A stretch of 64,000 nucleotides of DNA from Akkermansia sp. (GTDB lineage: Bacteria; Verrucomicrobiota; Verrucomicrobiia; Verrucomicrobiales; Akkermansiaceae): NCBI GenBank assembly GCA_045653545.1, contig JAZOMC010000014.1:3880-67879 (forward strand), given 5' to 3'. Both the position numbers and the translations under genes were made by a program. Below the pieces are notes generated by a model. It made no database searches and was not told the origin of the DNA. It saw nothing but the letters and a program-made list of their open reading frames with translations. This document shows, piece by piece, positions 3,014 through 27,305 of the stretch. Positions within the stretch are counted from its first letter, which is position 1, and every line of letters starts with the position of its first letter.

Positions 3014-3037
3014 AATTCAGGAAAAATCGGTTAGGGG

Positions 3038-5636
<2,599 letters not shown>

Positions 5637-5667
5637 TTATATAATATGTCAGTATAGTGAAAAAAAC

Positions 5668-5922
5668 TCACAAAAATGCACCTATAGCAGCCCAACCGCA
5701 GGAAAACATCATAAGCCCCATAACATACCGCCAAAAGCGCCTACAGCCCATTACAGAGGCCTTTATGAGCATTTTACAAGATTCACAGCGAGACAGCGAT
5801 TCCGAGTTAAGATAATATAAGGGCAGCACATTACAGGTAAAAAGATACCAGAGCCATACAAACCTAAGACGAGCCATTTCCTCCACCGACATATTTGAAA
5901 CAGCTTTTTGCCGCTTAGACAT
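5668..5922 (-). CDS. Possible small membrane protein (84 aa)
   Basis: Fills the gyrB-mpl gap and has two hydrophobic stretches and a CxxC; no family recognised. Confidence 0.3.
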   Translation of the reverse strand: MSKRQKAVSNMSVEEMARLRFVWLWYLFTCNVLPLYYLNSESLSRCESCKMLIKASVMGCRRFWRYVMGLMMFSCGWAAIGAFL

Positions 5923-5990
5923 ACATAAAAAACGCTTGCCAAATACCGCGGAATAAGTTACTCTAACTCACCTCTCATTCTCAAACGTAT

Positions 5991-7385
5991 ATGAAGCACG
6001 TACACTTCCTCGGAATCTGCGGCACCGCGATGGGTGCTGTGGCATCAGCCATGGCTCGCAAGGGCTACACTGTTACCGGCACTGATGCCAACGTCTATCC
6101 GCCCATGTCCACGTTCTTGGAGAGTGAGGGCATTCAGATTTTTCAGGGGTACAAGCCTGAGAATCTTCCCGAAGACGCGGATTTAGTGGTCATCGGTAAT
6201 GCCATGAGCCGTGGCAATGTGGAAGTGGAAGCTGTACTGGAGCGCAACATGCGCTATATGAGCCTTCCGGAGACGATGAAGGAGTTCTTCCTCTGGGGCA
6301 AGCACAATTACGTTGTAACCGGCACGCACGGCAAGACCACCACCACGAGTATGCTGGCTTGGCTTATGGAAGCCAACGAGATGAACCCGAGCTTCATGAT
6401 TGGCGGCATTGCCCGTAATCTGGGCCGCGGTGGCCGCTTTACGGATTCTGACTACTGCGTGCTGGAGGGTGATGAGTACGATACGGCTTTCTTTGACAAA
6501 CGCTCCAAGTTCCTGCACTATCTGCCTGAGGTTGTTATCATCAACAACATCGAGATGGATCACGCGGACATTTACTCAAACGTGGAGGAAATTAAGCTTT
6601 CCTTCAAGCGCCTGCTGCGCGTGGTGCCCCGCACAGGCGTGGTATTCATCAATTCTGACTGCCCGAACTGTGCAGATGTACGAGAACACGCTGCAACCGA
6701 GCTGAAAATGGTGAAGATTGTGGGCGTAGGCATGGAAGAAAATGCTGACCTGCGCATTACCGACATCGAGCGCCGCACGGATGGCAGTTCCTTCACGCTG
6801 GAAGGTGAGACCTACAGCATCCCCATGATTGGCGACTTCAACATTCGGAATGCCGCCATGGCTACCTGCGCTGCCCGTAATGCAGGGCTGACGCCGGACC
6901 AGATTCGCAGCGCATTCCTGAGCTTCACCGGCGTGGCTCGCCGCCAGGAGGTGCGTGGCACCGTGAACAGCGTAACCGTAGTGGATGACTTTGCCCACCA
7001 CCCCACAGCCATTCGTCAGGCCGTGGAAGGCCTGCGCCAGCGCTTCCCCAAGAGCCGCTTGTGGGTAATCTTTGACCCCCGCAGCAACACCACCATCCGT
7101 AACCTTTTCCAGCAGGAGCTGGCAGCAGCCCTCTCCACCGCGGACTTCGCCGTCATCTCCCCCGTGGAGAACCACAAGCGCCTTCGCCCCGAGGAAAGGC
7201 TGGATGTGGAGCAGCTTCGCAATGATATCAGCGAAAAAGGCACAGAGAGCTATCTGGGAACGGATGTGGACGACATCGTGGCGCACGTGGTGTCACGCGT
7301 ACACCCCGGCGATGTGCTGCTGGTGATGAGCAACGGTGGTTTTGGCGGCATACACAGCAAGCTGCTGAGCGCACTCGCCCAGTAA
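5991..7385 (+). CDS. mpl: UDP-MurNAc:L-Ala-gamma-D-Glu-mDAP ligase (Mpl/MurC family)
   Basis: N-terminal HFLGICGTAMG, GTHGKTTT, EGDEYD...FDKRSKF, DDFAHHPT, MSNGGFGGIH. Confidence 0.88.
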   Translation: MKHVHFLGICGTAMGAVASAMARKGYTVTGTDANVYPPMSTFLESEGIQIFQGYKPENLPEDADLVVIGNAMSRGNVEVEAVLERNMRYMSLPETMKEFFLWGKHNYVVTGTHGKTTTTSMLAWLMEANEMNPSFMIGGIARNLGRGGRFTDSDYCVLEGDEYDTAFFDKRSKFLHYLPEVVIINNIEMDHADIYSNVEEIKLSFKRLLRVVPRTGVVFINSDCPNCADVREHAATELKMVKIVGVGMEENADLRITDIERRTDGSSFTLEGETYSIPMIGDFNIRNAAMATCAARNAGLTPDQIRSAFLSFTGVARRQEVRGTVNSVTVVDDFAHHPTAIRQAVEGLRQRFPKSRLWVIFDPRSNTTIRNLFQQELAAALSTADFAVISPVENHKRLRPEERLDVEQLRNDISEKGTESYLGTDVDDIVAHVVSRVHPGDVLLVMSNGGFGGIHSKLLSALAQ

Positions 7386-7402
7386 TAAAACTTTATCAAA
7401 GG

Positions 7403-7445
7403 AAAAAGCACCCCGGCTAACCAAATACAGCCGGGGTGCTTTTTT
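7403..7445. terminator. Bidirectional intrinsic terminator
   Basis: aaaaagcaccccggct...agccggggtgcttttt between convergent genes. Confidence 0.85.
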
Positions 7446-7463
7446 ATCTCAAGAGAAAGCTCG

Positions 7464-8099
7464 TTATGCTGATTTTTTACTTTCCTTTAAGAGCTCTTTC
7501 AGCTCCTGCACGGAGGCCATGAGTTTGCGGTTAGAGCGTTTCAGATACAACAGACTGAAAAGCACAATGATTGTAACCAGCGTCAGATACAGAATAATCC
7601 CCCAGCACATTAACTGCAACGAGTAAAGAGAACCGGAAATTCTCGGGCTATCCACCACTCGGTTAACAATGATATCTCCGACCTCCCTGGCATATTCCCG
7701 CCCCTCCAGTTTGTATTGCTCCTTATATTCAGCCAGAAAATGGTCAAGCGCATCTTTCAACGTAGAAGAAATCACCTCAGATATGGAGCGATCCCCCAAG
7801 CGCTCAGAGGTAGCCTCCCTCACCCGGTTAAGCATATCCCTGCCCCGGTCACGCCAACGGCGGCCATCGGTGGCGGGCTCTTCTGCCGCGGCAGGTTCCT
7901 GCTCCGCCTCGGAAGTGAGCGCTTGCTCCGCCTCATCAGCGGAATGACGAGCCGCGCGGCGCTCCTGCTCAGCCTGCAGAACTCGGCTACCGGCAGAAAG
8001 AAGGCCATCTATAATCCGGTCGCTACGAGAAGAATCCGCCCAGGATTCACCAATAAGAAAGGAAAACAGAACAGAAAAAGAAAGAAGGAGATGCTTCAT
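7464..8099 (-). CDS. Hypothetical exported/membrane protein
   Basis: Signal peptide, helical charged middle, C-terminal TM helix then a coiled-coil-like tail. Confidence 0.7.
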   Translation of the reverse strand: MKHLLLSFSVLFSFLIGESWADSSRSDRIIDGLLSAGSRVLQAEQERRAARHSADEAEQALTSEAEQEPAAAEEPATDGRRWRDRGRDMLNRVREATSERLGDRSISEVISSTLKDALDHFLAEYKEQYKLEGREYAREVGDIIVNRVVDSPRISGSLYSLQLMCWGIILYLTLVTIIVLFSLLYLKRSNRKLMASVQELKELLKESKKSA

Positions 8100-8148
8100 G
8101 TAATCATGATAGCATCCCCTTCTTTACTTTGCAAGATTAAAGCAGCCC

Positions 8149-10488
8149 TCAGAGGACATTCCCCTGCGACTGAGGAGCAGCCGCAGCTGCGGGAAGCGCC
8201 GGTACTGCCGGGGCCACAGGAGTCACAGGAGCGGCAGGCTGCGGCTCAGGACGGGCGGCAGGACGTGTAGCGGGAGCAGAGCTGCGGCTCTGGCTGGTGG
8301 AGCGGCTCACAGCAGAAGAGGCACCACCACGGTTCGTGCAGCCCTCAAAAGCAGCCGGGAAGAATGCCCTAGCCGGAGCCTCAGCGGAAGCAATCGCCGC
8401 ACGAGTAGGCACCACACCGGCCTCGCCATCAAAGTTCACAGCGCGGCGGAAAATCTCATGATCCGTACCGAACACCATATATCGGTGCACAAGGAAGGGC
8501 TCCTCCTCGCACTCCACTTTGCGCTCCAGTACAGTAAAGGCGGCCTGATACCCGGCCTCTCGAAGAGTATCTATCATAGGCTGTGTATTATAGCCACCGG
8601 GATAACAATACGTAGAGCAGTTGCCGAACATATTCATCAGGCGTGTCCGGGAATCCACCAGCTCCGTGCGAAGCTGAGCGGCATACTCAGAAGAAGCCTG
8701 ATTATAACGCCTCCACTTACTGGGGTAAAGGTGATTAGAGGAATGGCTGCCGATGGTGGCGCCATTTGCCATCATCTCCTGAATCTGCGCGGTGGTCATG
8801 GAATCACCCTGCACATTGATGTAGCGAGTGTACAGGAAAAGCGTGAAAGGATAGCCGTACGCACGAAGCACCGGATAAGCCTCAGAATACACACTCTTCC
8901 AGCCATCATCGATAGTGATAAGAACACAGCGTTCCGGCAGACAGCGCTGGCCATGGCGCCACTCCAGAAAATCCTGCATGGAAATCACACAGATGTCAGA
9001 ATCCTTCAGGAACTGCATCTGGCGGCAGAAATCAGCCGTGCTCATGCGCATATCCGTGCAGGGACGCGTCTTGCTGAAGTTATGATACCCCAGAACAGCC
9101 ACGCGAGTCTGCTCACGCGACACGAGAGGTTGCTTAAACTGTGCGCTCACCCAATCCCCCTCCGGAGTGCGGCGACCGAGTACACCGAGGCTAGGCTCCA
9201 CAGGAGCCAGCTCGGGGCGGGATTCAGCGGCTTCAGGCTCAGCAGGCGCAACGGGCTCAGCGGGTGCAGCAGGAGCAACGGGCTCAGCAGGTGCAGCGGG
9301 CTCAGCAGGTGCAGCGGGTGCAACGGGAGCAACGGGCTCAGCGGAAGCAGCGGGCTCAGCGGGAGCGGCGGGCTCAGCGGGTGCAGCAGGTGCAGCAGGT
9401 GCAACGAGCTCAGCGGGTGCAACGGGCTCAGCGGGAGCAGCAGGTGCAGCGGGTGCAACGGGCTCAGCGGGAGCAGCGGGAGCAACGGGCTCAGCAGGCG
9501 CGGCGGGAAGCGGGCTCACAGCCGGATTCGCAGCCACACCGGAGGGGTCAGCCACAGCAAGCAGATCTTCTTCACTCACCTCCTCTGCCAAATCATCATC
9601 AGTAAACTCAGGCAACACCACAGGCGTATTAGCTGCGGTCACAGCAGGAGTAACAGACGAAGCCGGAACAACGGCCACAGCAGGAGCTGCTTCCACAGCC
9701 GGAGCACAGGCAGCCAGAACATCCTCCACTTCAGCCACGCTTGCCTCAGAGCCAAAAGAAACAGCCTGAGCAAAGACGTGGTTATCACTCACTGCATAGC
9801 GAGGATAAGCATGGGCATGCGTAGCCACGGTGCCCTTTTCCGGTTCTTTTGTGAAAGCCACTTCAAAGTGACTCTGCCCAAGAGCTCGCTGAAGCTCAGG
9901 AGATATCTCACCAGTAGTACAGGAAAACGCACGACAAGCACCGAACACGGACGTCACGCGCAGCGCAGCGGATGTCAACAGTTCAGATGAGACATCACCG
10001 GCCGCACAGCTACCGATTTCCGCGCCCTCGTACTGGAGTGTCAGCAACTGCGGCGCCAGCAAAGCATCCTCAGCCTCAGCAGGCTGCTCAGCATCAGTAA
10101 AAACAACAAAAGGGAATCCGCAGCGCTGCAGCACAGGCAAAGCGACCTCCAAAAAGGTCTGATTGGGAGAATCAAAGGTCAGCAGCACAGAGCAGGCAGG
10201 AAGAGCTCGCTGGCCTTTTCGCCATGCGAGAAAATCCGCGCAGGAAATGACATTCGCCCCGCTATCCCGGAGAAAGTTCATCTGCTGCTCAAAATCTGCG
10301 GCAGATAACGTCCCTTCACCGGAGGCAATACGGCCATACCCCAGCACCGCCACACGGCACTGTACAATCTGAGCTCCCAGAGCGGGATCAGAAGCGCTTT
10401 GGGCAGCTACAGCCGGCTCAGCGTACTGAGCAAATGAATGATTAACGAGAAAAGAAAACGCAGTAATGCAGGTTACAATATGCTTCAT
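8149..10488 (-). CDS. Polysaccharide deacetylase (CE4/NodB-type) with two deacetylase-like domains and a Pro/Ala linker
   Basis: C-terminal domain has LITIDDGW, GSHSSNH and YCYPGG; N-terminal copy is degenerate (LTFDSPN); signal peptide present. Confidence 0.85.
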   Translation of the reverse strand: MKHIVTCITAFSFLVNHSFAQYAEPAVAAQSASDPALGAQIVQCRVAVLGYGRIASGEGTLSAADFEQQMNFLRDSGANVISCADFLAWRKGQRALPACSVLLTFDSPNQTFLEVALPVLQRCGFPFVVFTDAEQPAEAEDALLAPQLLTLQYEGAEIGSCAAGDVSSELLTSAALRVTSVFGACRAFSCTTGEISPELQRALGQSHFEVAFTKEPEKGTVATHAHAYPRYAVSDNHVFAQAVSFGSEASVAEVEDVLAACAPAVEAAPAVAVVPASSVTPAVTAANTPVVLPEFTDDDLAEEVSEEDLLAVADPSGVAANPAVSPLPAAPAEPVAPAAPAEPVAPAAPAAPAEPVAPAELVAPAAPAAPAEPAAPAEPAASAEPVAPVAPAAPAEPAAPAEPVAPAAPAEPVAPAEPEAAESRPELAPVEPSLGVLGRRTPEGDWVSAQFKQPLVSREQTRVAVLGYHNFSKTRPCTDMRMSTADFCRQMQFLKDSDICVISMQDFLEWRHGQRCLPERCVLITIDDGWKSVYSEAYPVLRAYGYPFTLFLYTRYINVQGDSMTTAQIQEMMANGATIGSHSSNHLYPSKWRRYNQASSEYAAQLRTELVDSRTRLMNMFGNCSTYCYPGGYNTQPMIDTLREAGYQAAFTVLERKVECEEEPFLVHRYMVFGTDHEIFRRAVNFDGEAGVVPTRAAIASAEAPARAFFPAAFEGCTNRGGASSAVSRSTSQSRSSAPATRPAARPEPQPAAPVTPVAPAVPALPAAAAAPQSQGNVL
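9232..9520 (-). repeat. Degenerate 9-nt-unit tandem repeat encoding (A/V)AP and AEP tripeptides
   Basis: Many copies of gggctcagc interleaved with aggtgcagc/gggtgcaac; the protein has 10 AEP units plus one AEL. Confidence 0.9.
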
Positions 10489-10523
10489 GTGATTTTGCTA
10501 TACAGTCTAGAACAGCCGGCAAA

Positions 10524-11708
10524 TCAACGGCCGGGTACCATTTCAAAGGTGAATCCCTTAAGGTATTCAGTTTCGGGAATATTCAACAGCACGGGATGAT
10601 CCGGGCTCTGGCCATGATTCGCCACTAAGCGCAGCGTGCAGTGACCATCCACTGCGGCGTCCGCAATCGTCTCCTTAAACACACCGGCACTGGCATGGTG
10701 AGAGCAGCAGAATGTGGAGAGCACGCCACCTACGGGCAGCATCTGCATGGCACGCAGGTGAATCTCCTTATAACCGCGCATGGCGCCGCTAAGGCTCTTC
10801 TTGTTACGGGTAAAGCTGGGCGGATCAAGAATGATGAGGTCCCACTTCGGGTCTGCGCCCTTACGCACAGCATCACTCTCACGCTTCAGGAAATCGAAGG
10901 CATTCTCAGCAATAGCCTCTATCTGCACGCCATTCAGCTCAGCATTACGACGCACGGAAGCAATAGCCTCCTCAGAGATATCCACAGCGGTCACGCTGGC
11001 AGCACCGGCCTTAGCACAGGCAAGAGCGAAACCACCCTGATTGCAGAAGCAATCCAGCACGCGGCGGCCACGAGCAAACTTCGCCACGTCAGCATAGTTC
11101 TGCAGCTGGTCCAAGTACAGGCCGGTCTTCTGCCCGGTGGCGAGGTCAATCATGAACTTCAGGCCACGGCCCGTAGCGATGAACGGTTCAGGCATCTCAC
11201 CGGCAGCCACATACGTCTCTGGCTCAATACCTTCCGCCAGCAACATAGGAGAATCATTACGCACAATGATGGCACGAGGCTCAAGCAAATCTCCGAGGAT
11301 ATCGCGGATAAGCCCCAAGCGCTGGTGCATTGCCAGCGTAAGCGTCTGCACCACCAGCACATCACGGTAGCGGTCTACAATCAGGCCGGGCAAGCCATCA
11401 CTCTCACTCCACACCAAGCGCATCAGCTCCTCACCGGGAAGCCAGCGCTCACGCAGCATCATAGCCTGAGATATGCGGCGAGCAAAAAAGTCGCGGTCCA
11501 AATCCTGCTTACGTCGGGAAAAGCGGCGAGCCACAATCTGCGAGTGAGGATTATACATGGCAGAACCCAGATAATGGTCCCGCTGATCCTTCAGCAGCAC
11601 CACATCGCCCGGTGCCGGATTTCCGAACACAGTGCGCACCTCAGTGCCGTATACCCAGTCATGCCCGTGGAAAATGCGCGCCTTCGGCGCTATGATAAGA
11701 CCTGCCAT
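10524..11708 (-). CDS. rlmI: Class I SAM-dependent rRNA methyltransferase, RlmI/YccW family
   Basis: PUA-like N-terminus (GHDWVY), ESDGLPGLIVDRY, GQKTGLYLDQ, VLDCFCNQGGF, DLIILDPPSF, PETEYLKG. Start moved to MAGLII (11708) because the ORF-track ATG lies inside the -10 box. Confidence 0.85.
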   Translation of the reverse strand: MAGLIIAPKARIFHGHDWVYGTEVRTVFGNPAPGDVVLLKDQRDHYLGSAMYNPHSQIVARRFSRRKQDLDRDFFARRISQAMMLRERWLPGEELMRLVWSESDGLPGLIVDRYRDVLVVQTLTLAMHQRLGLIRDILGDLLEPRAIIVRNDSPMLLAEGIEPETYVAAGEMPEPFIATGRGLKFMIDLATGQKTGLYLDQLQNYADVAKFARGRRVLDCFCNQGGFALACAKAGAASVTAVDISEEAIASVRRNAELNGVQIEAIAENAFDFLKRESDAVRKGADPKWDLIILDPPSFTRNKKSLSGAMRGYKEIHLRAMQMLPVGGVLSTFCCSHHASAGVFKETIADAAVDGHCTLRLVANHGQSPDHPVLLNIPETEYLKGFTFEMVPGR

Positions 11709-11813
11709 AACGCGGCCCACCATACTACAAATTCATTATTTTGTCAATCAGTAATAATTTAAGAATACTTTAGTATTGACAATCATCAACTAATCTGACA
11801 CAATGCAGGTGTC

Positions 11814-12689
11814 ATGAGTGCACGAACCCTCTTCACCGCGACAACAGCTGCCATTCTCATGGTAGCCGGCAGCCTCAGCGCTGCCACCCGAGTAGTCCTG
11901 CAGGACACCCACTGCCGGACCAATGCCGTGACCTACACCCTGCCGAATGACTGGGCCGGTGGCGGCGAAGTAACATGGAATACTGAAAGTGAGCGACTTG
12001 GAAACTTCTGCATTAGAACTATGCAGTTAGTAAACCGGAAGGACGCCATCATCGCGAACTACATTTCAGCATACGAAGTACCTCTGAGAACCTCCAACCC
12101 CGGCGCTATGGCTCTGGCAGAAATGCTGGTAAGCGTAGCCAGACAACTGCCGGGCAATCAGAACATCACCCCGGTAGATGCCGTCATCTATCAGGCACCG
12201 CAGGACGTACAGGATTTCCGCATGGCGCGGGATAACCTCAGCGCCCAGCTTGGCAAGAGAATCACAGGCCGAGTCTACATCGTGAACGCCACCTATTCTG
12301 ATGGAACCATGGTAGGAGCCATTGTTCACGAGCGCAGCATGCGCAGAAACTTCCGCAGCGAGAGAAGCATTACTTTCCACGATATTTTCGTACTGGGTAG
12401 CACCGGTGAAACACGCCCGAACGAACAGGCGCTGCACCAGGCCCTCGTGGATGTAAGCCGCGCCGCCCGCCGAGCAGACTTCAACTCGAACTGGATTACC
12501 GAAAACATCCGCCAGACCGCTAACGCATTCTACGGAATGCGTCGTCTGGATGAGCGTGCCCTGCCCCAGATTACCCAAAAGGCAATCGAAGGCATGCGCC
12601 GCGGCCTCCCCTCCGTGCTGGATTGCCTTTACACCAGCCGGTTCTGCCAACGAGCAGAACAGGGAGCCACACCCGTTGCGCGCAACTAA
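11814..12689 (+). CDS. Hypothetical secreted protein
   Basis: Signal peptide (MSART...SLSA); own TTGACA promoter at 11776; no family recognised. Confidence 0.7.
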   Translation: MSARTLFTATTAAILMVAGSLSAATRVVLQDTHCRTNAVTYTLPNDWAGGGEVTWNTESERLGNFCIRTMQLVNRKDAIIANYISAYEVPLRTSNPGAMALAEMLVSVARQLPGNQNITPVDAVIYQAPQDVQDFRMARDNLSAQLGKRITGRVYIVNATYSDGTMVGAIVHERSMRRNFRSERSITFHDIFVLGSTGETRPNEQALHQALVDVSRAARRADFNSNWITENIRQTANAFYGMRRLDERALPQITQKAIEGMRRGLPSVLDCLYTSRFCQRAEQGATPVARN

Positions 12690-12806
12690 AGCAACTGATT
12701 GAAGCAAGATTTTCCGAGAGCAAGCGTCCCACGGGGCACTTGCTCTCGTTGCATTTTCATCAATTCAAAAATTAGCCATTCACAGAGGACAAAGCAGCCT
12801 TACTGC

Positions 12807-12835
12807 TTGCCATAGGGCCGTATATTTGATACACT
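12807..12835 (+). promoter_or_regulatory. Sigma70 promoter (TTGCCA-17-TACACT, extended -10 TG), 7 nt before the ECF ATG
   Basis: ttgcca tagggccgtatatttga tacact acagtca ATG. Confidence 0.65.
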
Positions 12836-12842
12836 ACAGTCA

Positions 12843-13529
12843 ATGGACGCGAGTGATGAAAAGAACACACCGGATGACAGCGCACTGGAAAAGTACGCTG
12901 CCAGAACCCGGCGTAGCCTCATCGCCCGCTTACAAGACTGGAAAGACCAGCGCAGCTGGGACGAGTTTTACCGCACCTATTGGCGCCTCATTTACAGCGT
13001 GGCCACAAAATCCGGCCTAAGCCCGGACGAAGCATGGGACACCGTGCAGGAAACAGTCCTTTCCGTAGCCCGACAGACACGCGAGAAGCAATACGACCCG
13101 GCGAAAGGCTCCTTCAAAATGTGGCTGTGGCACATCATACGCTGGCGTATCAAAGACCAGTTCCGCAAAAGGCTACCGATGACGGCAGAAGAGGCAGATT
13201 CTACAGACACCCCTGCCACAGATGTGGAAAATCTGGCAGACATCAGCGGTGATACTTTTGACAAAATATGGGAGCGAGAATGGCAACAGAATATTCTGAA
13301 AGCCGCCACAGAACGCGTCAAAATGAAAACATCTCCGCGGCAGTTTCAGATATTTGACTACCTCGTTCTGCGCGGCATGAGCACGGCTGACGTTCGCAGT
13401 AAACTCGGCGTAAGCCTAGCCCAAGTATATCTAGCGAAACACCGCATAGGCGGCCTGCTGCGCCGCGAAATTGAATACATCCGCGCCCAAGGAGACGCAC
13501 CGGCCTCCCCTAACGAAGCCAACAAATAG
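12843..13529 (+). CDS. ECF sigma-70 factor (Planctomycetes/Verrucomicrobia type)
   Basis: SLIARLQDWKDQRSWDEF..Y, DTVQETVLSV, GSFKMWL in region 2; region 4 HTH. Confidence 0.85.
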   Translation: MDASDEKNTPDDSALEKYAARTRRSLIARLQDWKDQRSWDEFYRTYWRLIYSVATKSGLSPDEAWDTVQETVLSVARQTREKQYDPAKGSFKMWLWHIIRWRIKDQFRKRLPMTAEEADSTDTPATDVENLADISGDTFDKIWEREWQQNILKAATERVKMKTSPRQFQIFDYLVLRGMSTADVRSKLGVSLAQVYLAKHRIGGLLRREIEYIRAQGDAPASPNEANK

Positions 13530-13551
13530 AGAGCTGAAAAGAAAATACGGC

Positions 13552-13580
13552 TTGCCAAAGTCGGAAAAAAAGAGTATAAT
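13552..13580 (+). promoter_or_regulatory. purMF promoter TTGCCA-17-TATAAT
   Basis: Near-consensus hexamers with 17-bp spacing, 34 nt before the purM ATG. Confidence 0.75.
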
Positions 13581-13614
13581 CCGCGCGAATCCACGTGATA
13601 TCACTCCAAATCAT

Positions 13615-14613
13615 ATGTCCGGCAACCTCACATACAAGCAATCCGGCGTCGATACCATCGAGGCACAGTCTTTCGTGAATGACATCAGCGCGCACGTTAA
13701 GCGCACGCAGAAAAACCGTCAGCTTTGCAATGCTTTCGGTCTCTTTGCTGCAGCTTACGACCTCTCCGCCTACAAGGAGCCCGTCATCGTGACCGGCACC
13801 GACGGCGTGGGCACCAAGACGGAAATTCTTTTCGATCTTGACATGCTCGAAACCGCAGGCAAAGACCTGGTAGCCATGAACGTGAACGACATTCTCACCA
13901 CTGGTGGTGACCCGCTCGTTTTCCTTGATTACCTGGGAATCTCCAATCTTGAGACTGAAAAGCCCCGCATCACCCGCCTGGTGGCCGGCATGTGTGACAA
14001 CCTGGAGAGCTGCAACTGCATCCTCGCGGGTGGCGAGACCGCTGAGATGCCCGGCGTTGTACCCGAGAATCTCGTTGAGATGGCCGGTTTCAGCATTGGC
14101 TGTGTAGAGAAGAGCCAGATGATTGATCCCTCTCAGGTTGAAGTGGGTGATGTGCTCATCGGTTACCCCAGTGATGGTTTCCACGCCAACGGCTGGAGCC
14201 TCGTGCGCCGCATTCTGAAGCAGAATCCTGACCTCCTCACCGAGGAAGAGCTGCGCAGCCTGCTGGCTCCCACTCGCCTGTACCATGACGTGGTATACGA
14301 CATGCGCAAGCTCGGCATCACCCCCAAGGCATATGCCCACATCACCGGTGGCGGCCTGCCCGAAAACCTTGAGCGTTTCCTTGGTGATAAGGGCGCTGAC
14401 CTCGAAATCCCCTACTGGGATAACGCTGCCGTACAGAAAGTGCTCACCTTCGTGGACGCTGAAGACCGCTTCCACACCTTCAACATGGGCATCGGTTGGG
14501 TAGCCATCGTGAAGCCCGAGCAGGTGGAACAGGCCTGCACAGCCGGCCCCGGTGGTACCGTTATCGGCACCATGCGTGAGGGCAAGGGCATCCATGTGAC
14601 TGTACGCAAGTAA
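13615..14613 (+). CDS. purM: Phosphoribosylformylglycinamidine cyclo-ligase
   Basis: TYKQSGVD, GTDGVGTK, AGGETAEMPG, AHITGGGLPEN, TFNMGIG. Start set at MSGNLTY. Confidence 0.95.
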   Translation: MSGNLTYKQSGVDTIEAQSFVNDISAHVKRTQKNRQLCNAFGLFAAAYDLSAYKEPVIVTGTDGVGTKTEILFDLDMLETAGKDLVAMNVNDILTTGGDPLVFLDYLGISNLETEKPRITRLVAGMCDNLESCNCILAGGETAEMPGVVPENLVEMAGFSIGCVEKSQMIDPSQVEVGDVLIGYPSDGFHANGWSLVRRILKQNPDLLTEEELRSLLAPTRLYHDVVYDMRKLGITPKAYAHITGGGLPENLERFLGDKGADLEIPYWDNAAVQKVLTFVDAEDRFHTFNMGIGWVAIVKPEQVEQACTAGPGGTVIGTMREGKGIHVTVRK

Positions 14614-14632
14614 ACGCAATTTTTAAGACTAT

Positions 14633-16522
14633 ATGTCCGCAGCAATCAGACTGCTTAAGCCGCTCTCCTATTTTGCGGAGAAGTACGGCTCGCCCGAGTG
14701 GGCCTTCAACAAGCTTTTCCTGCTCATGGAAAAGCAGCACAACCGCGGGCAAGACGGCGCAGGCATCGGCTGTATCAAGCTGAATATGCCGCTGGGAGAG
14801 CCCTACATCTTCCGCGCTCGTGATGCCTCCGCCTCTGCCGTGACGAAAATGTTCTCACAGCAGCAGCACACCCTGCGCCGCCTGAAAGACGAAGGGCTCG
14901 TACGCGGCGCGGATGCAGATACCTACAAGCGCCATTTCAACTTCGGCGGTGAGGTACTGCTCGGCCACCTGCTGTACGGCACAAGCGGAACCACAGCGGA
15001 GGAAGGCATCTGCCACCCCTACATGCGCCGCACCAACTGGCCCACTCGTACCCTCATGATGCAGGGTAACATGGGTATCACCAACATCTCCGAGCTTCAC
15101 CAGAAGCTCATCTCCCGTGGCCAGCACCCCGTCTTCGGCACAGATATCCAGACCCTCATGGAAGAGGTTGGTTATTACTTGGATGAGGCCCACACGGATC
15201 TCTACCGCCAGCTGCGTGATAAGAACGTGGATGGCCGCGAGATTCCCAACATCATCTCCGCTGAGCTGGATCTCTTTGATATCATCGGCAAGGCCAGCAA
15301 GGACTGGGATGGCGGCTACACCATCATGGGTGGCGTGGGTAATGGTGACTTCTTCTGCCTGAGAGACCCGCACGGCATCCGCTACTGCTACTACGTTCTC
15401 ACGGACGAATATCTGGCCGTGGCCAGCGAACGCGTGCCGCTCATGAGCGTGATGGAAGTGGAGGAGCACGAGGTGAAGGAACTTGCCCCGGCTAACATGA
15501 TTGTGGTGAAGTATGACGGTGCGGTGACCATCAAGGAATACACCAAGCCCGAGAAACACACCCCCTGCTGCTTCGAGGACGTGTACACCTCCCGCGGCAA
15601 TGACCCCGTCATCTACCGCGAGCGTAAGGCACTGGGTGCCAACCTCACAGAGCAGGTAGTGGAGAGTCTGGACGGCAACTTCTCCAAGGCTGCCATCACC
15701 TTCATTCCGAACACGGCTGAAGTTTCATACTATGGTCTTCTGGAAGGCCTGCGCGCCTACCGCCGCAATAAGGTAACAGAGGCCATGATTAATGCTTTCC
15801 GAGAAGGCACCATGAGTGAGGAGCTCATCAATGAGCTTATCCTCCGCCGCTGGCCCCGCGCTGAAAAGATTGCTCATAAGGACATTAAGCTCCGCACCTT
15901 CATCTCAGAAGAAAGTAGCCGTAAGCAGCTTGCTGCCATGGTGTATGACCTCACATACGGCGCTGTAAACAGCGATGAAGTGCTGGTAGCAATCGACGAC
16001 TCCATCGTACGCGGCACCACTCTGAAGATGAGCCTCCTGCGCCTTCTGGCCCGCACTCAGGCACGTAAGATTGTCATCGTATCCTCTGCCCCGCAGGTTC
16101 GTTACCCGGACTGCTACGGCATTGATATGAGTGAGATGGGCAAGTTCATCGCCTTCCAAGCAGCCATAACCCTGCTGAAGAAGCGCGGCATGTACACACA
16201 CATCATTGACGTGTATGAAGAATGTAAGCGCCAGCTCACTTTGCCGCCGGCAGAGCGCACCAACCCGGTGAAGAAGATTTACGAACCCTTCACGGATGAT
16301 GAAATCACAGCGGAGGTTTCCCGCATGGTCACGCCGGACAACAGCCCCTGCGCCATTCAGGTGATTTACCAGACCTTGGAAGGCCTTCGTGATGCAATCG
16401 AAGGTCCCTGCGGAGACTGGTACTTCAGCGGTGATTATCCGACCCCCGGTGGTTTCACTGTGGTCAACCAAGCCTTCATTCAGTGGTTTGAGAGTCGCGA
16501 CAAGCGAGACTACAATCTCTGA
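14633..16522 (+). CDS. purF: Amidophosphoribosyltransferase, long (Bacteroidota/PVC-type) form lacking the N-terminal Cys
   Basis: HNRGQDGAG, RDPHGIR, PRT motif VAIDDSIVRGTT, PQVRYPDCYGIDM, WYFSGDYPT. Confidence 0.9.
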   Translation: MSAAIRLLKPLSYFAEKYGSPEWAFNKLFLLMEKQHNRGQDGAGIGCIKLNMPLGEPYIFRARDASASAVTKMFSQQQHTLRRLKDEGLVRGADADTYKRHFNFGGEVLLGHLLYGTSGTTAEEGICHPYMRRTNWPTRTLMMQGNMGITNISELHQKLISRGQHPVFGTDIQTLMEEVGYYLDEAHTDLYRQLRDKNVDGREIPNIISAELDLFDIIGKASKDWDGGYTIMGGVGNGDFFCLRDPHGIRYCYYVLTDEYLAVASERVPLMSVMEVEEHEVKELAPANMIVVKYDGAVTIKEYTKPEKHTPCCFEDVYTSRGNDPVIYRERKALGANLTEQVVESLDGNFSKAAITFIPNTAEVSYYGLLEGLRAYRRNKVTEAMINAFREGTMSEELINELILRRWPRAEKIAHKDIKLRTFISEESSRKQLAAMVYDLTYGAVNSDEVLVAIDDSIVRGTTLKMSLLRLLARTQARKIVIVSSAPQVRYPDCYGIDMSEMGKFIAFQAAITLLKKRGMYTHIIDVYEECKRQLTLPPAERTNPVKKIYEPFTDDEITAEVSRMVTPDNSPCAIQVIYQTLEGLRDAIEGPCGDWYFSGDYPTPGGFTVVNQAFIQWFESRDKRDYNL

Positions 16523-16540
16523 TTTGGTTAATCTCATTAA

Positions 16541-16572
16541 AGCACCTGCCATTGCATGCAGTGGCAGGTGCT
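16541..16572. terminator. Long inverted repeat after purF
   Basis: agcacctgccattgca/tgcagtggcaggtgct; no clear T-tract on the + strand. Confidence 0.5.
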
Positions 16573-16595
16573 AAGTCCAGAATCCCTCCCCATAT

Positions 16596-17204
16596 ATGAG
16601 CAAGCAGTATAAAAAGGCTGAACTTAATAATCTTGAAGAGACTGAGCTGGTAAAGCTGAGTCAGGAGGGGATTCTCGCTGCTTTTGACGAACTGCTAAAG
16701 CGCAACATCCGCCGTATCGTCGGCATGCTCACGCAGATGCTGAAATCTGAGATGGATGCCTACGATGTGGCCCAGACTGCTGCTATCAAAGCATATCGCT
16801 CCATTAAGAGCTTTAATGGCACAAGCCAGTTCTACACGTGGATGTATACCATCGCACTGAACGAGGCCCGCAATTTCCTGCGCAAGGAAAATAAGCACCG
16901 CAACCAAACGAGCCTGAATGATGACACTAATGGCGACCCGCTGGAAAAGGATTCCCATGCTGCGGACCGCTCGCTCGTTTCCGACCCGGTGCGTCAGGCT
17001 CAGGTGTCAGACCTTAAAACAAGCCTGAAGAAAGCACTGGCTCAGCTCTCGGACGCCCACCGAGAGGTCGTCATTATGTGCGATATTGAGGGCATGAGCT
17101 ACATGGAAGTTTCACAAATTCTACAGGTACCGGAACCGACCCTACGTTCCCGCCTGCACTATGCTCACCGCTATCTCCAAAGCCTACTAAGGGATGAGAG
17201 ATAA
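16596..17204 (+). CDS. ECF sigma factor, RpoE-like
   Basis: AFDELL, DAYDVAQTAAIKAYRSIKSF, SQFYTWMYTIALN, SYMEVSQILQVPEPTLRSRLHYA. Confidence 0.88.
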   Translation: MSKQYKKAELNNLEETELVKLSQEGILAAFDELLKRNIRRIVGMLTQMLKSEMDAYDVAQTAAIKAYRSIKSFNGTSQFYTWMYTIALNEARNFLRKENKHRNQTSLNDDTNGDPLEKDSHAADRSLVSDPVRQAQVSDLKTSLKKALAQLSDAHREVVIMCDIEGMSYMEVSQILQVPEPTLRSRLHYAHRYLQSLLRDER

Positions 17205-20510: not shown

Positions 20511-21392
20511 TCAGTGACGCGGCTTTCTAGCCCCCGGCAAGCCCCATGTCCGTGCGCGCAGATGAGTTCTCAACGAGTTCAGCTTTATTTTCAATCGGCG
20601 GAAGGGAGTCGTCAATACATGCCACATTCCCGCTAAGGTATAATAACTATACGGCTCTTGGGATTTTGAGTATGATTCCGTACAAGTGAACGTATTAGCA
20701 ATACTCGACATACCATCGACATGCACAATAAGATCAGGTTGAACCACATATACCTTCACTCCATACAAAGCTGCCACATTATCTCGATAGAAAGAATCCA
20801 CAGCTCGGTATATAGACAACCACTCCCAGATATTCTCCTCCGTCGGCATCATCGATAAGATACGGTCATACATGCTCTCTGGCACCATGTAACCAAACCC
20901 TGCCAACACACCTTCAGTCTGCCACAGTCCATGGTCGCCATGCTTATACACCTTACGTCCATAGGGGGTGGGACGGCTATATCCTAAATAGAGAAGATAT
21001 TGCCCCTTAAGAGAATCCAACGCATACTCAAATACATCAGCAGCGTCAGAATCCGCCAAAACACGGACATCATCCTCAAGAATCAACACATTACGCCAGC
21101 CTTCCTTCTTGGCACGTTCAATGGCATAACGATGAGAAAGCACACACCCGGCCGTTCCTCCCCAAAAGTGAGCTCGCTCCATAGTGCGTGCTGTAAACCA
21201 AGGACTCTCTCCGTACCCGGCTAATTTTCGACCATCTACAGCAACGAATCTATGCACTTTCTCAATCGGCAAGGTCGACCGATTATCCTCCATAAAACGC
21301 GTCATTCGTTCCGGAAAAGAATCTAGATTAATCACTAGAATTCCATCTACCTTATCCCACGCTTTGTGGAGCTGCTGGCTTTCATCTTTCAT
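20511..21392 (-). CDS. Glycosyltransferase family 25-like
   Basis: VINLDSFPERM, AVDG, GCVLSH..A, ILEDD; ATG start at MKDES. Confidence 0.8.
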   Translation of the reverse strand: MKDESQQLHKAWDKVDGILVINLDSFPERMTRFMEDNRSTLPIEKVHRFVAVDGRKLAGYGESPWFTARTMERAHFWGGTAGCVLSHRYAIERAKKEGWRNVLILEDDVRVLADSDAADVFEYALDSLKGQYLLYLGYSRPTPYGRKVYKHGDHGLWQTEGVLAGFGYMVPESMYDRILSMMPTEENIWEWLSIYRAVDSFYRDNVAALYGVKVYVVQPDLIVHVDGMSSIANTFTCTESYSKSQEPYSYYTLAGMWHVLTTPFRRLKIKLNSLRTHLRARTWGLPGARKPRH

Positions 21393-21406
21393 ACCTGTAC
21401 CGAAAA

Positions 21407-21784
21407 TCAATCTTCAACACGGCCGTAATCGTCCTTATATCTCTCAATATCGTCCTCAGAGAGATAATCTCCCATCTGGATTTCTATCAAAGAGAGCGGC
21501 GCTTCAGCTTCATTACTCAGGCGGTGCAGGCTTCCCCGCGGAATCAGAACGGATTCTCCAACACCTAACCTCTTAACTACTCCGTCACAACAAATAACCG
21601 CCTCACCTTCAGTCACCACCCAGCGCTCCATGCGATGCGCATGACTCTGCAGAGAAATTCGTCCGCCCGGCATTACATTTATCTTCTTAACCACAACACG
21701 TGGTTGAACATCAAGCACCTGCCAGCCACCCCACGGGCGGTCCTCCATTTCACCGGGCTCGTATGTTGGAGTATCAGTACTCAT
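21407..21784 (-). CDS. Cupin, stand-alone type II phosphomannose-isomerase C-terminal domain
   Basis: DRPWGGW, ISLQSHAHRMERWVV, HRLSN, IEIQMGDYLSEDDIERYKDDYGR. Confidence 0.88.
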   Translation of the reverse strand: MSTDTPTYEPGEMEDRPWGGWQVLDVQPRVVVKKINVMPGGRISLQSHAHRMERWVVTEGEAVICCDGVVKRLGVGESVLIPRGSLHRLSNEAEAPLSLIEIQMGDYLSEDDIERYKDDYGRVED

Positions 21785-24851: not shown

Positions 24852-26009
24852 ATGAAAGCGATTCTTGCACTAGAAGACGGAACCACATTCGAGGGCACCG
24901 CTATTGGCGTTGCCGGCACAGTAACCGGCGAGATATGCTGCGACACCTCAGTCATGGGCTATCAGGAACTCCTGACAGACCCCGCCTGCAAAGGGCGCAT
25001 CATGGCTATGACCTACACACTCATCGGTAACTACGGCGTGTGCGAGGAAGATAACGAGAGCGCAGCTCCTCAGGTAAACGGCCTCGTCGTGACCGAACTC
25101 GCCCGCCTCCACAGCAACTGGCGCGCCGAGGAAAGCATGGGTGCATGGCTCACCCGCCACAATGTCGTCGGCATCTCCGGCATCGATACGCGCAAGATTG
25201 CCACACTCCAGCGCAACAAGGGCGCCCTGCGCGGCTGCATCACCACGGAGCTGAGCGTTGAGGACGCCATTAAGACCGCTCAGAACGCTCCTGAACTTAC
25301 CGGCGCAGACCTCGTCAGCAGCGTCACCACCCCCACCACTTACCACTGGGAAGGTGAATCCCGCGCTTGGAAACTCCCGAACAAGACTCAGGGAGACCTC
25401 ACCACCTACACCGAGCTGCCCCCTGTAAGCTACAAGGTGGTAGTATATGACTTGGGCGTACGCCGCAGCACCCTGCGCCGCCTGCGCCAGATTGGCTGTG
25501 ATGTCACAGTGGTTCCCGCCACCACCCCCGCTGAAGAAGCCCTTTCCCTCCGTCCGGATGCCATCATCCTTTCTGACGGCCCCGGCGACCCCGCCGCCCT
25601 TTCCGCCGTAACGGCACAGGTGAAGAGCCTTGCCGGCAAGCTCCCCGTGGCTGGCATCGGCCTTGGCAGCCTTGTCATCGCCATCGCCGTGGGCGCCACC
25701 ACTCGCAAGCTCCGCGTGGGCCATCAGGGTTGCAACCAGCCCGTGAAGTCCCTCTGCAGCGGCAAGGTGGACATCACCACACAGAACACCATCTTCACCA
25801 TCGACTCCGCAAACATGCCCGAGACACTGGAGGTGACAGAGGTCAATCTGAATGATGACACCGTGGCCGCCTACCGCCATGCCTCTCAGCCCATGTTCGG
25901 CGTGCAGTACCTCCCCACTACACCCGCAGGCGCTGATGATACAACCAACTTCTACAACAGGCTCATCCAGACCATTAAGGACGTGAAAGCCGGTAAGTAC
26001 AACGCATAA
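24852..26009 (+). CDS. carA: Carbamoyl-phosphate synthase small subunit homolog, catalytically degenerate
   Basis: MKAILALEDGT.F.G, GYQELLTDP, IGNYG, GIDTR, SDGPGDP; catalytic motifs altered (GIGLGSL, QYLPT). Confidence 0.9.
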   Translation: MKAILALEDGTTFEGTAIGVAGTVTGEICCDTSVMGYQELLTDPACKGRIMAMTYTLIGNYGVCEEDNESAAPQVNGLVVTELARLHSNWRAEESMGAWLTRHNVVGISGIDTRKIATLQRNKGALRGCITTELSVEDAIKTAQNAPELTGADLVSSVTTPTTYHWEGESRAWKLPNKTQGDLTTYTELPPVSYKVVVYDLGVRRSTLRRLRQIGCDVTVVPATTPAEEALSLRPDAIILSDGPGDPAALSAVTAQVKSLAGKLPVAGIGLGSLVIAIAVGATTRKLRVGHQGCNQPVKSLCSGKVDITTQNTIFTIDSANMPETLEVTEVNLNDDTVAAYRHASQPMFGVQYLPTTPAGADDTTNFYNRLIQTIKDVKAGKYNA

Positions 26010-26027: not shown

Positions 26028-27305
26028 ATGAATACACTAGTCATTGGCTCCCAGTGGGGAGATGAAGGCAAGGGTAAGGTCATCGATTTCCTCACCGAAA
26101 CCGCTGACGTCGTAGCCCGCAGCCAGGGCGGCAGCAATGCCGGCCACACCGTCATCGCCAAGGGGCAGAAGTACGTGCTGCACCTCATCCCCTCCGGCAT
26201 TCTCTGGGAAGGCAAGGTGAACGTCATCGGTAACGGCGTGGTTATCAACCCCACTTCCCTCGTGGAAGAAATCCGCTACCTGCAGGATAAAGGCGTAACC
26301 ATCAGCCCCAAGAACCTCCTCATCTCTGACCGCGCACACGTAGTGCTGCCCATTCATAAGGAGATTGACGGCGCTCAGGAAGAAGCTCTCGGTGATCAGA
26401 AGATTGGCACCACCCGCCAAGGCATTGGGCCCACCTATGCAGACAAGGCCCGCCGCGTAGGCATCCGTATGATTGACCTCGCTGATCCCACCCGCTTGGA
26501 GAAGGTACTGAAGGCTCGCATCAAGACCGCTAACGAGGAGCTCGTGCGCCTCGGCTGGCCCGCTGCGGACCCGCAGGTTACTCTGGATGCCGTGATGGCC
26601 GCTGCCGATGTGCTGCGCCCCCACATCACGAACACCATCCCCGTTATCAATGACGCCATCAAGGCCGGCAAGACCGTCCTCTTCGAAGGCGCTCAGGGCG
26701 CCATGCTGGACATCGACTTCGGCACCTACCCCTTCGTGACCAGCTCCAACACCAGCGCCGGCGGCTGCTGCACCGGCTCAGGCGTAGCCCCCACCCGTAT
26801 CGATAAGATTATCGGCGTGTGCAAGGCTTACACCACCCGCGTGGGTGAAGGCCCCTTCGTGACGGAAGACGCAGAAATCAGCGATTACCTCCACGGCCTT
26901 GGCCGCGAGTTCGGTGCCACCACAGGCCGCCCCCGCCGCTGCGGCTGGACGGACGGCGTTGTGCTCCGCTTCTCCGCCATGTTCAACGGCTTTGACGAAA
27001 TGGCCATGACCAACCTCGATGGCCTGGACGAGCTGGATTCCATCAAGATTTGCACCGGCTATCGCATGGGTGACCAGGTGCTCGAGTACCCCCCTGCCCT
27101 CATGGAGGAGTGGTACCAGTGCGAGCCCATTTACGAAACCCTCCCCGGCTGGAAGAAGGACATCTCCTCCTGCACCACCTGGGACGAGCTGCCCGAGAAC
27201 TGCAAGGCATATGTCAAGCGCTTCGGCGAAGTCGTAGGCTGCCCCGTTGGCACCGTTGGCGTAGGCCCGGACCGCGAGCACACCATCAGCGTGCCCCCCT
27301 GTTAG
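26028..27305 (+). CDS. purA: Adenylosuccinate synthetase
   Basis: QWGDEGKGK, GGSNAGHT, IGTTRQGIGP, EGAQG..LD.DFGTYPFVTSS, GATTGRPRRCGW. Confidence 0.97.
   Translation: MNTLVIGSQWGDEGKGKVIDFLTETADVVARSQGGSNAGHTVIAKGQKYVLHLIPSGILWEGKVNVIGNGVVINPTSLVEEIRYLQDKGVTISPKNLLISDRAHVVLPIHKEIDGAQEEALGDQKIGTTRQGIGPTYADKARRVGIRMIDLADPTRLEKVLKARIKTANEELVRLGWPAADPQVTLDAVMAAADVLRPHITNTIPVINDAIKAGKTVLFEGAQGAMLDIDFGTYPFVTSSNTSAGGCCTGSGVAPTRIDKIIGVCKAYTTRVGEGPFVTEDAEISDYLHGLGREFGATTGRPRRCGWTDGVVLRFSAMFNGFDEMAMTNLDGLDELDSIKICTGYRMGDQVLEYPPALMEEWYQCEPIYETLPGWKKDISSCTTWDELPENCKAYVKRFGEVVGCPVGTVGVGPDREHTISVPPC

Follow-up and report, generated by a model that had tools for sequence, protein, structure and literature searches.

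According to reviews, bacterial carbamoyl phosphate synthetases (CPSs) without exception take their nitrogen from glutamine under physiological conditions (PMC6245113). Vertebrate CPS I draws on external ammonia: it is a fused chain, dependent on N-acetylglutamate, in which the glutaminase-like domain has been inactivated through replacement of Cys by Ser (PMC4655335). Engineered E. coli mutants (C269S and, in PDB 1m6v, G359F) are described as having lost the use of glutamine and kept that of ammonia (titles cited in PMC6245113). In Bacteroides thetaiotaomicron, a “high-affinity ammonium locus” with carAB and dapLF is needed when ammonium is scarce, and an orphan CarB2 functions when it is abundant (PMC8121099); this ammonium CPS is genetically inferred and has no small subunit (PMC8121099). 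Our literature search found no bacterial CarA-CarB with a naturally dead but retained small subunit, and no work on the nitrogen donor of CarA or PurF in Akkermansia. Here we analyze a 64,000-nucleotide stretch of an Akkermansia sp. genome (assembly GCA_045653545.1, contig JAZOMC010000014.1, positions 3,880 to 67,879 of the forward strand; hereafter the window), in which a carA ortholog at 24852..26009 (+) encodes a CPS small subunit of 385 amino acids without the Cys-His-Glu triad. We consider it quite likely that this protein is the pseudo-glutaminase subunit of an NH3-dependent CPS, retained for its partner CarB and convergent with vertebrate CPS I.

The window protein is a CarA by descent, as judged by family score, orthology and two-domain fold. 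Searches with TIGR01368 and Pfam, together with alignments, recovered a full-length protein (370.4 bits against a TIGR01368 cut-off of 307.35) with both domains in place: an N-terminal CPSase_sm_chain domain (PF00988, residues 5-130, 1.7e-43; 24852..25421, +) and a class I glutamine amidotransferase (GATase)-like domain (PF00117, residues 198-373, 5.4e-30; 25434..25979, +) devoid of the nucleophile, the His, the Glu and the glutamine-binding residues. Its start, Met1-Lys2-Ala3, is invariant among 36 homologs, its identity to E. coli CarA is 39%, and in a CarA tree congruent with that of CarB it nests among the CarA proteins of the genus and order to which it belongs. A preliminary description of this DNA had claimed a preserved fold and a full-length open reading frame (ORF) with core-like codon usage, and both claims hold. 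An AlphaFold2 model (predicted local distance difference test 87.6, predicted template modelling (TM) score 0.89) has as its best Foldseek matches the E. coli CarA chains 1cs0_B, 1a9x_B and 1jdb (TM 0.89-0.91) and fits the N-terminal moiety of human CPS1 with a TM of 0.80, while the codon-usage score of the gene lies at the 81st percentile of the long ORFs of its genome.

The residues needed for glutamine chemistry were compared one by one in a HMMER alignment to E. coli CarA (PDB 1c30/1cs0) and in a MAFFT alignment; substitutions are given in E. coli numbering. Every motif loss listed in the preliminary description reappeared in both alignments: GICLGHQ reads GIGLGSL (C269G, H272S, Q273L), QNHGF reads QNTIF (H312T, G313I), the HPE motif reads LPT, within QYLPT (H353L, E355T), and SNGPG reads SDGPG (N240D). 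In the numbering of the window protein, Gly270 (25659..25661, +) occupies the position of the nucleophile Cys269, Leu354-Pro-Thr356 (25911..25919, +; H353L codon at 25911-25913, E355T codon at 25917-25919) that of His353-Pro-Glu355, and Thr313-Ile314 (25788..25793, +) that of His312-Gly313 in the glutamine pocket. Two further changes, S47A and M36V, can be added; the latter is a fixed derived state, found in 43/44 CarA sequences with a dead triad (“dead” CarAs). The glutamine-binding and oxyanion positions S47, N240, Q273, H312 and G313 are hence occupied by A, D, L, T and I. What the GATase domain retains is G241, G243, L270, G289, H290, G292, N311 and F314, and the CarA-specific GH.G.N motif together with N311 is near-invariant within the dead clade. 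Judged by its triad and glutamine-site residues, the window CarA falls outside the functional class of glutamine-hydrolysing class I amidotransferases, and it is most likely unable to bind or hydrolyse glutamine.

Residual glutaminase activity through an unconventional nucleophile, leaving the enzyme dependent on glutamine, strikes us as scarcely credible. Sister lineages of a type we call “SHA” (five genomes) keep a Ser-His pair with which weak chemistry would be possible in principle, and frog CPS I, inactive despite its triad, can regain activity (PMC4655335). In the window protein, however, the triad positions hold Gly, Leu and Thr, S47, Q273, H312 and G313 have gone as well, and GIGLGSL offers no Cys, Ser or Thr at or beside position 269. 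The Cys269-to-Ser change of the sister lineages is itself that of the engineered C269S protein in PDB 1c30, and the E. coli C269S mutant is not known to hydrolyse glutamine.

Evidence that the dead subunit is still under selection comes from comparison with relatives, which the preliminary description had suggested as a check. Ratios of non-synonymous to synonymous divergence (dN/dS) were calculated pairwise by the Nei-Gojobori method, values at dS > 1 being rough. Against the reference relative GCA_045652085.1, with 98% CarA protein identity, carA shows 53 synonymous and 11 non-synonymous differences, giving a dN/dS of 0.06 overall, 0.03 for the N-terminal domain and 0.08 for the dead GATase domain; eight neighbouring genes span 0.02-0.17, a range that includes the carA value. 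Across 21 closer pairs within the dead clade carA dN/dS is 0.08-0.25 (GATase half, 0.06-0.32), and intact-triad pairs give 0.07-0.15. With purifying values of 0.06-0.25 and an uninterrupted frame of full length in no fewer than 45 species genomes, carA is not a pseudogene, and it is not decaying. Constraint has nevertheless been relaxed, and in a domain-specific manner: of 186 GATase positions, the dead clade has 27 that never vary and intact Akkermansia has 95, and for the N-terminal domain the counts are 58/183 versus 73/183. The GATase half is thus loosened but under purifying selection, the N-terminal half nearly unchanged.

These figures bear directly on the possibility that carA is a decaying remnant, in a cell that obtains carbamoyl phosphate, or arginine and pyrimidines, from elsewhere (from CarB alone, by uptake or through an unseen paralog). 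Such a remnant would fit the accelerated evolution of the dead CarAs, which are ~58% identical (52% in the GATase half) at ~89% CarB identity, compared with 69% CarA identity at 81% CarB identity for intact pairs. It would also fit the small number of invariant GATase positions, the 91% completeness of the genome, and the ability of E. coli CarB alone to use NH3 (PMC6245113). Set against this are the full-length frame in all those species, the purifying dN/dS in every close pair and in the GATase half too, the near-intact constraint on the N-terminal domain, and the codon usage; moreover, dead carA persists even beside an acquired, complete second carAB, as described below. We therefore give decay very little credence.

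The distribution of the loss was followed in a census of 62 of 154 Akkermansia species, the second batch of which was non-random and from which the carA region of one genome (G053) was left out. CarA is Cys-less in 45 of these species genomes and has an intact triad in 17; the residue replacing Cys269 is mostly Gly, with Ser in five and Ala in one. All six aligned CarAs of outgroup Verrucomicrobiales are intact (6/6), as is that of a closed 2,664,102-bp Akkermansia genome, which we take to be A. muciniphila MucT, so that A. muciniphila is presumably canonical. All 19 Cys-less sequences in the CarA tree fall into one clade, as do their genomes in the CarB tree, which indicates that the nucleophile was lost once, in a common ancestor. 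The His and Glu were lost later and by sublineage: the “GTE” type keeps the Glu, the “SHA” type keeps the His, and the window lineage keeps neither. In all, positions 269, 353 and 355 show 17 residue combinations, a pattern that is the one expected once the remaining catalytic residues turn neutral after a first hit. Protein clusters from metagenomes show the same range, including Cys-His forms without the Glu. Among them, the Akkermansia-like CarAs of clusters P0083, P0117 and P0120 keep Cys and His but are without Glu355, Q273 and H312, and may represent steps on the way to inactivation, or inactivation under way independently. In the closed 3.2-Mb genome G053, the open frame around the carA match (G053:C1:812612-813172) is just 196 amino acids long, and this carA may be split or truncated.

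The same variation speaks to the fate of the emptied domain. It could have taken on a new job, as a ligand-sensing or regulatory CPS module (for glutamine or another nitrogen signal) or as the partner of some other enzyme, and the preliminary description had offered a repurposed ligand-binding protein as one of its two readings. Continued purifying selection on the domain is what such a role would predict; the pocket frame formed by G241, G243, L270, N311 and F314 is kept, M36V is fixed, and the dead copy is maintained beside a full foreign carAB in 13/13 island genomes examined. Variation from lineage to lineage at the former active site, however, weighs against the emergence of a conserved ligand site: besides the 17 combinations at the triad positions, residues 272, 312 and 313 are highly variable, the dead-clade alignment contains no new conserved motif, and the window CarA has lost S47 and Q273, the residues by which the E. 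coli enzyme holds glutamine. We regard a new job as unlikely, and the repurposed ligand-binding protein finds no support here. The other reading, in which CarA serves an NH3-dependent CPS as a structural subunit or as a channel for ammonia, is in keeping with all the evidence, including the selection on carA and what else the genome encodes.

The genome to which the window belongs (G000; 2.27 Mb, 91% complete) has a single carA, on contig C14. Searches of this 91%-complete assembly with TIGR01368 and PF00117 for a second copy returned, besides CarA, only GuaA, PyrG and HisH, and four 99%-complete relatives (G001, G002, G012, G020) have one carA each, which is dead. The preliminary description had called for the partner and any second carA to be located: carB is intact and single, on another contig (G000:C35:71909-75043, L004; 1475 bits), its N-terminal half matching the E. 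coli protein with 628.6 bits over residues 1-409, and neither G000 nor the four relatives have an intact carA paralog. ArgF and PyrB, the two consumers of carbamoyl phosphate, are both encoded. Carbamate kinase was considered as an alternative source and rejected, the three AA_kinase matches being LysC, ArgB and PyrH. With no carbamate kinase and one CarA-CarB, CPS is therefore the only visible carbamoyl phosphate source for two essential pathways. A very divergent orphan carB, ~51-53% identical and on a long branch, was seen in another closed 3.2-Mb genome (G007:C1:875044-878169, L076), which also has a canonical adjacent carA-carB pair; the orphan may be an ammonium CPS like the Bacteroides CarB2.

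In an alignment built from phmmer-selected ORFs, the CarB tunnel-gate residues C232, A251 and A314 (E. coli numbering) are invariant, as are the presumed tunnel-lining residues E217, Y261, N283 and N301. The dead-clade CarB carries four clade-specific changes, Y216I/L, Q262A, I296V and I148V, two of which adjoin residues that we presume to line the tunnel; these changes may reflect co-evolution with the dead small subunit. Two further candidate features of the tunnel were dropped. G293C in CarA was considered as a CPS1-like tunnel block, but the intact CarA2 of the island described below also has a Cys there, so the residue is not diagnostic. A “hole” in the tunnel wall for the entry of ammonia (alpha-P360A/H361D and beta-R265K, mirroring an E. 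coli perforation mutant) does not characterise the clade: intact Akkermansia, too, lack a His at alpha-361, and 14/18 dead-clade genomes have Arg at beta-265.

A second amidotransferase of the window has undergone a parallel loss. The long form of PurF encoded there (629 amino acids; 14633..16522, +) has neither the catalytic Cys at its N terminus nor the Arg that binds glutamine. The protein starts MSAAIRLLKPL, versus MSDPLxHECGVAAIRLLKPL, with the N-terminal nucleophile Cys, in basal Akkermansia and outgroups. The truncated start is common to 18 examined genomes, in which the sequences upstream are mutually unrelated, and in the same 18 the glutamine-site Arg is replaced (GHLRY to GHL/MLY; GHLLY in the window) and the LGNFN motif altered. 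Genomes G001 and G003 combine a dead CarA with an intact PurF; the loss in PurF therefore came after that in CarA and is confined to a subclade of the dead-CarA genomes. Both PurF and CarB of E. coli are able to use NH3 instead of glutamine. PurM is encoded directly upstream of purF (13471-14613).

A global loss of glutamine amidotransferases was considered as well and is ruled out, since PyrG, GuaA, HisH and PurQ of G000 keep the catalytic Cys; the loss is therefore specific to CarA and PurF. For nitrogen assimilation the genome encodes glutamate dehydrogenase (GDH) and a type III glutamine synthetase (GSIII), and glutamate synthase (GOGAT), GlmS and AsnB were not found in the 91%-complete assembly. 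By gene content, GDH and GSIII with no GOGAT found form a pattern of assimilation at high ammonium. Searches by tblastn with DapF, NadE and GltB of the island described below returned no homolog in G000 at E < 1e-10, which reflects either an assembly gap or alternative enzymes, such as the Ddh type of diaminopimelate synthesis, as in Bacteroides at high ammonium.

In 5 of the first 24 relatives, an intact carA additional to the native one lies beside extra copies of carB and of purF, this purF encoding the Cys, and in one of these relatives the genes are laid out as a ~16-kb nitrogen island (G004:C15:97000-116900, L108; genes at 953-16810) encoding, in this order, the GOGAT large subunit (GltB, on the opposite strand), GSIII, PurF2, CarA2, NadE, CarB2, DapF and an aminotransferase. 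The island genes are non-orthologous to the native genes of G000 (identities of 54% for GSIII, 58% for CarB2, 38% for CarA2 and 36% for PurF2), and CarA2 is closest to proteins of Lentisphaeria/Victivallales, at 65-74% identity; by these comparisons the island has been horizontally acquired and has a Lentisphaeria-like origin. Island-type CarA2 (≥89% identity) occurs in 17/154 Akkermansia species genomes, the window genome not being among them. In each of 13 island genomes examined the native CarA is dead, and these genomes span at least four CarA sublineages, including that of a sister of the window species, with the same GIGLGSL. The island copies of G004 and G005 group together and their native genes sit in different subclades; since the copies group across species lines, the island moves between Akkermansia species. 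Acquisition of a glutamine-type carAB would be hard to explain were the native enzyme glutamine-using. By analogy, the match between the island and the Bacteroides locus is the strongest indirect support for the native enzyme being a high-ammonium, NH3-using CPS.

Given these observations, we propose the following explanation, in which the formation of a CarA-CarB complex, the NH3 donor, its route of entry and the ecological driver are inferred from sequence. The N-terminal domain of E. coli CarA is the part that holds CarB. Through its conserved N-terminal domain the dead CarA would likewise dock on CarB, where it would maintain the shape of the former ammonia tunnel and of the carboxyphosphate site in CarB and shield them both. 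The tunnel would admit free NH3 through the pocket now empty or along a side route, as has been proposed for CPS1 (PMC4655335), and the ammonia-dependent CarA-CarB would supply both ArgF and PyrB. On a longer time scale, the lineage would have moved its first nitrogen-donating steps from glutamine to ammonia, CPS first and then PurF. Ammonium in the colon reaches up to tens of mM. Ammonia could thus come from the ammonium-rich gut and, internally, from the action of NagB on mucin amino sugars; A. muciniphila is without GlmS and its NagB deaminates mucin amino sugars (PMC5902328), from which plentiful internal NH3 is to be expected. Bypassing glutamine would save the ATP otherwise spent by glutamine synthetase.

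Several points weigh against an NH3-dependent CPS with a retained dead subunit. Measured against CarB, the pace of CarA evolution in the dead clade is several times that of intact lineages, and part of the protein is therefore only weakly constrained. On its own, E. coli CarB forms carbamoyl phosphate from NH3 (PMC6245113); because it works without CarA, the need for a dead subunit lacks explanation, and E. coli CPS requires very high ammonia for this reaction (PMC6245113). None of the substitutions described here, including the four in CarB, is tied to a lower Michaelis constant for ammonia. The incompleteness of G000 makes an unseen paralog possible for that genome alone. Finally, carA and carB lie on separate contigs with no operon evidence, although the same is true of the intact-triad relatives G015 and G024.

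A wider proposal can be built on the NH3-dependent CPS, and we hold the chances of its being correct to be about even. An uncultured radiation of gut Akkermansia would have switched from glutamine to free ammonia as the nitrogen source for pyrimidines, arginine and purines, with the dead modules serving as ammonia ports or scaffolds, and a mobile, Lentisphaeria-like “low-ammonium” island (GS-GOGAT, PurF, CarAB) would restore glutamine dependence where needed. Nitrogen entry would then be a repeatedly toggled switch, and the enzyme would be the first case in bacteria of a CPS I-like synthetase that has kept its pseudo-glutaminase subunit. If true, a bacterial CPS with a dead, retained small subunit would overturn the rule of glutamine as donor and represent an independent replay of the vertebrate transition from CPS II to CPS I. 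The purpose of an inactive glutaminase domain becomes a testable question, for which the genus offers a natural comparison set: dead and intact orthologs, and genomes with a dead native and a live foreign enzyme. It would be predicted that many Akkermansia other than A. muciniphila need high ammonium, and nitrogen supply may separate the niches of species. There is also a practical side, as Akkermansia is under probiotic development and current pipelines misannotate dead CarAs, the homologs with a dead triad being named “glutamine-hydrolyzing” in databases wherever a name exists.

Analysis of the immediate surroundings of carA shows purA (adenylosuccinate synthase; 26028..27305, +; assigned by the Pfam family Adenylsucc_synt on the syntenic gene of the reference relative) following after a gap of 18 bp, and the two genes are probably co-transcribed. 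The gene upstream is divergent, so the 217-bp intergenic spacer must hold the carA promoter; a promoter of its own, as claimed in the preliminary description, is thus required by the gene arrangement, but no sigma-70-like site was found upstream of carA on the + strand. Contigs near-identical to parts of carA are present in a gut metatranscriptome, which is weak evidence of expression. Elsewhere in the window, a GT25 glycosyltransferase gene (20511-21410, -) encodes a protein only 52% identical to its counterpart in the reference relative, with dS saturated, whereas the flanking genes are at 92-99%; this divergence suggests that the allele has been replaced or that the gene is a hypervariable one for surface glycans.

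How does this locus compare with the described systems? The E. coli CarA-CarB (PDB 1jdb, 1a9x, 1c30, 1m6v) has the same two-domain fold and subunit organisation, but the window protein is without C269, H353, E355, S47, Q273, H312 and G313. By analogy, the ammonia-only state engineered in E. coli is the natural state proposed for the Akkermansia CarA-CarB. The Bacteroides locus likewise groups a glutamine-type carAB with dap and nitrogen-assimilation genes, and the Akkermansia island follows the same logic; unlike that locus, the island is found in 17/154 species, is Lentisphaeria-like and is not in the window genome. The Bacteroides CarB2, the nearest analogue among bacteria, differs further in having no small subunit, whereas the dead CarA is conserved in all examined genomes of the Akkermansia clade. 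The closest likeness in function is with CPS1 (EC 6.3.4.16; PDB 5dou/5dot), in which an ancestral glutaminase domain has lost the catalytic Cys and the inactive domain has been retained. In both cases an inactive module stands beside an intact synthetase, here a dead CarA and an intact CarB, and the tunnel gate C648/A667/A729 of CPS1, equivalent to C232/A251/A314 of E. coli, is conserved there and here (PMC4655335). CPS1, however, is one chain of ~1500 residues, whereas the Akkermansia carA (C14) and carB (C35) are separate genes, and it keeps the His and the Glu, whereas the window CarA has lost all three triad residues. The orthology of the latter with bacterial CarA gives the Akkermansia form an origin independent of the vertebrate one.

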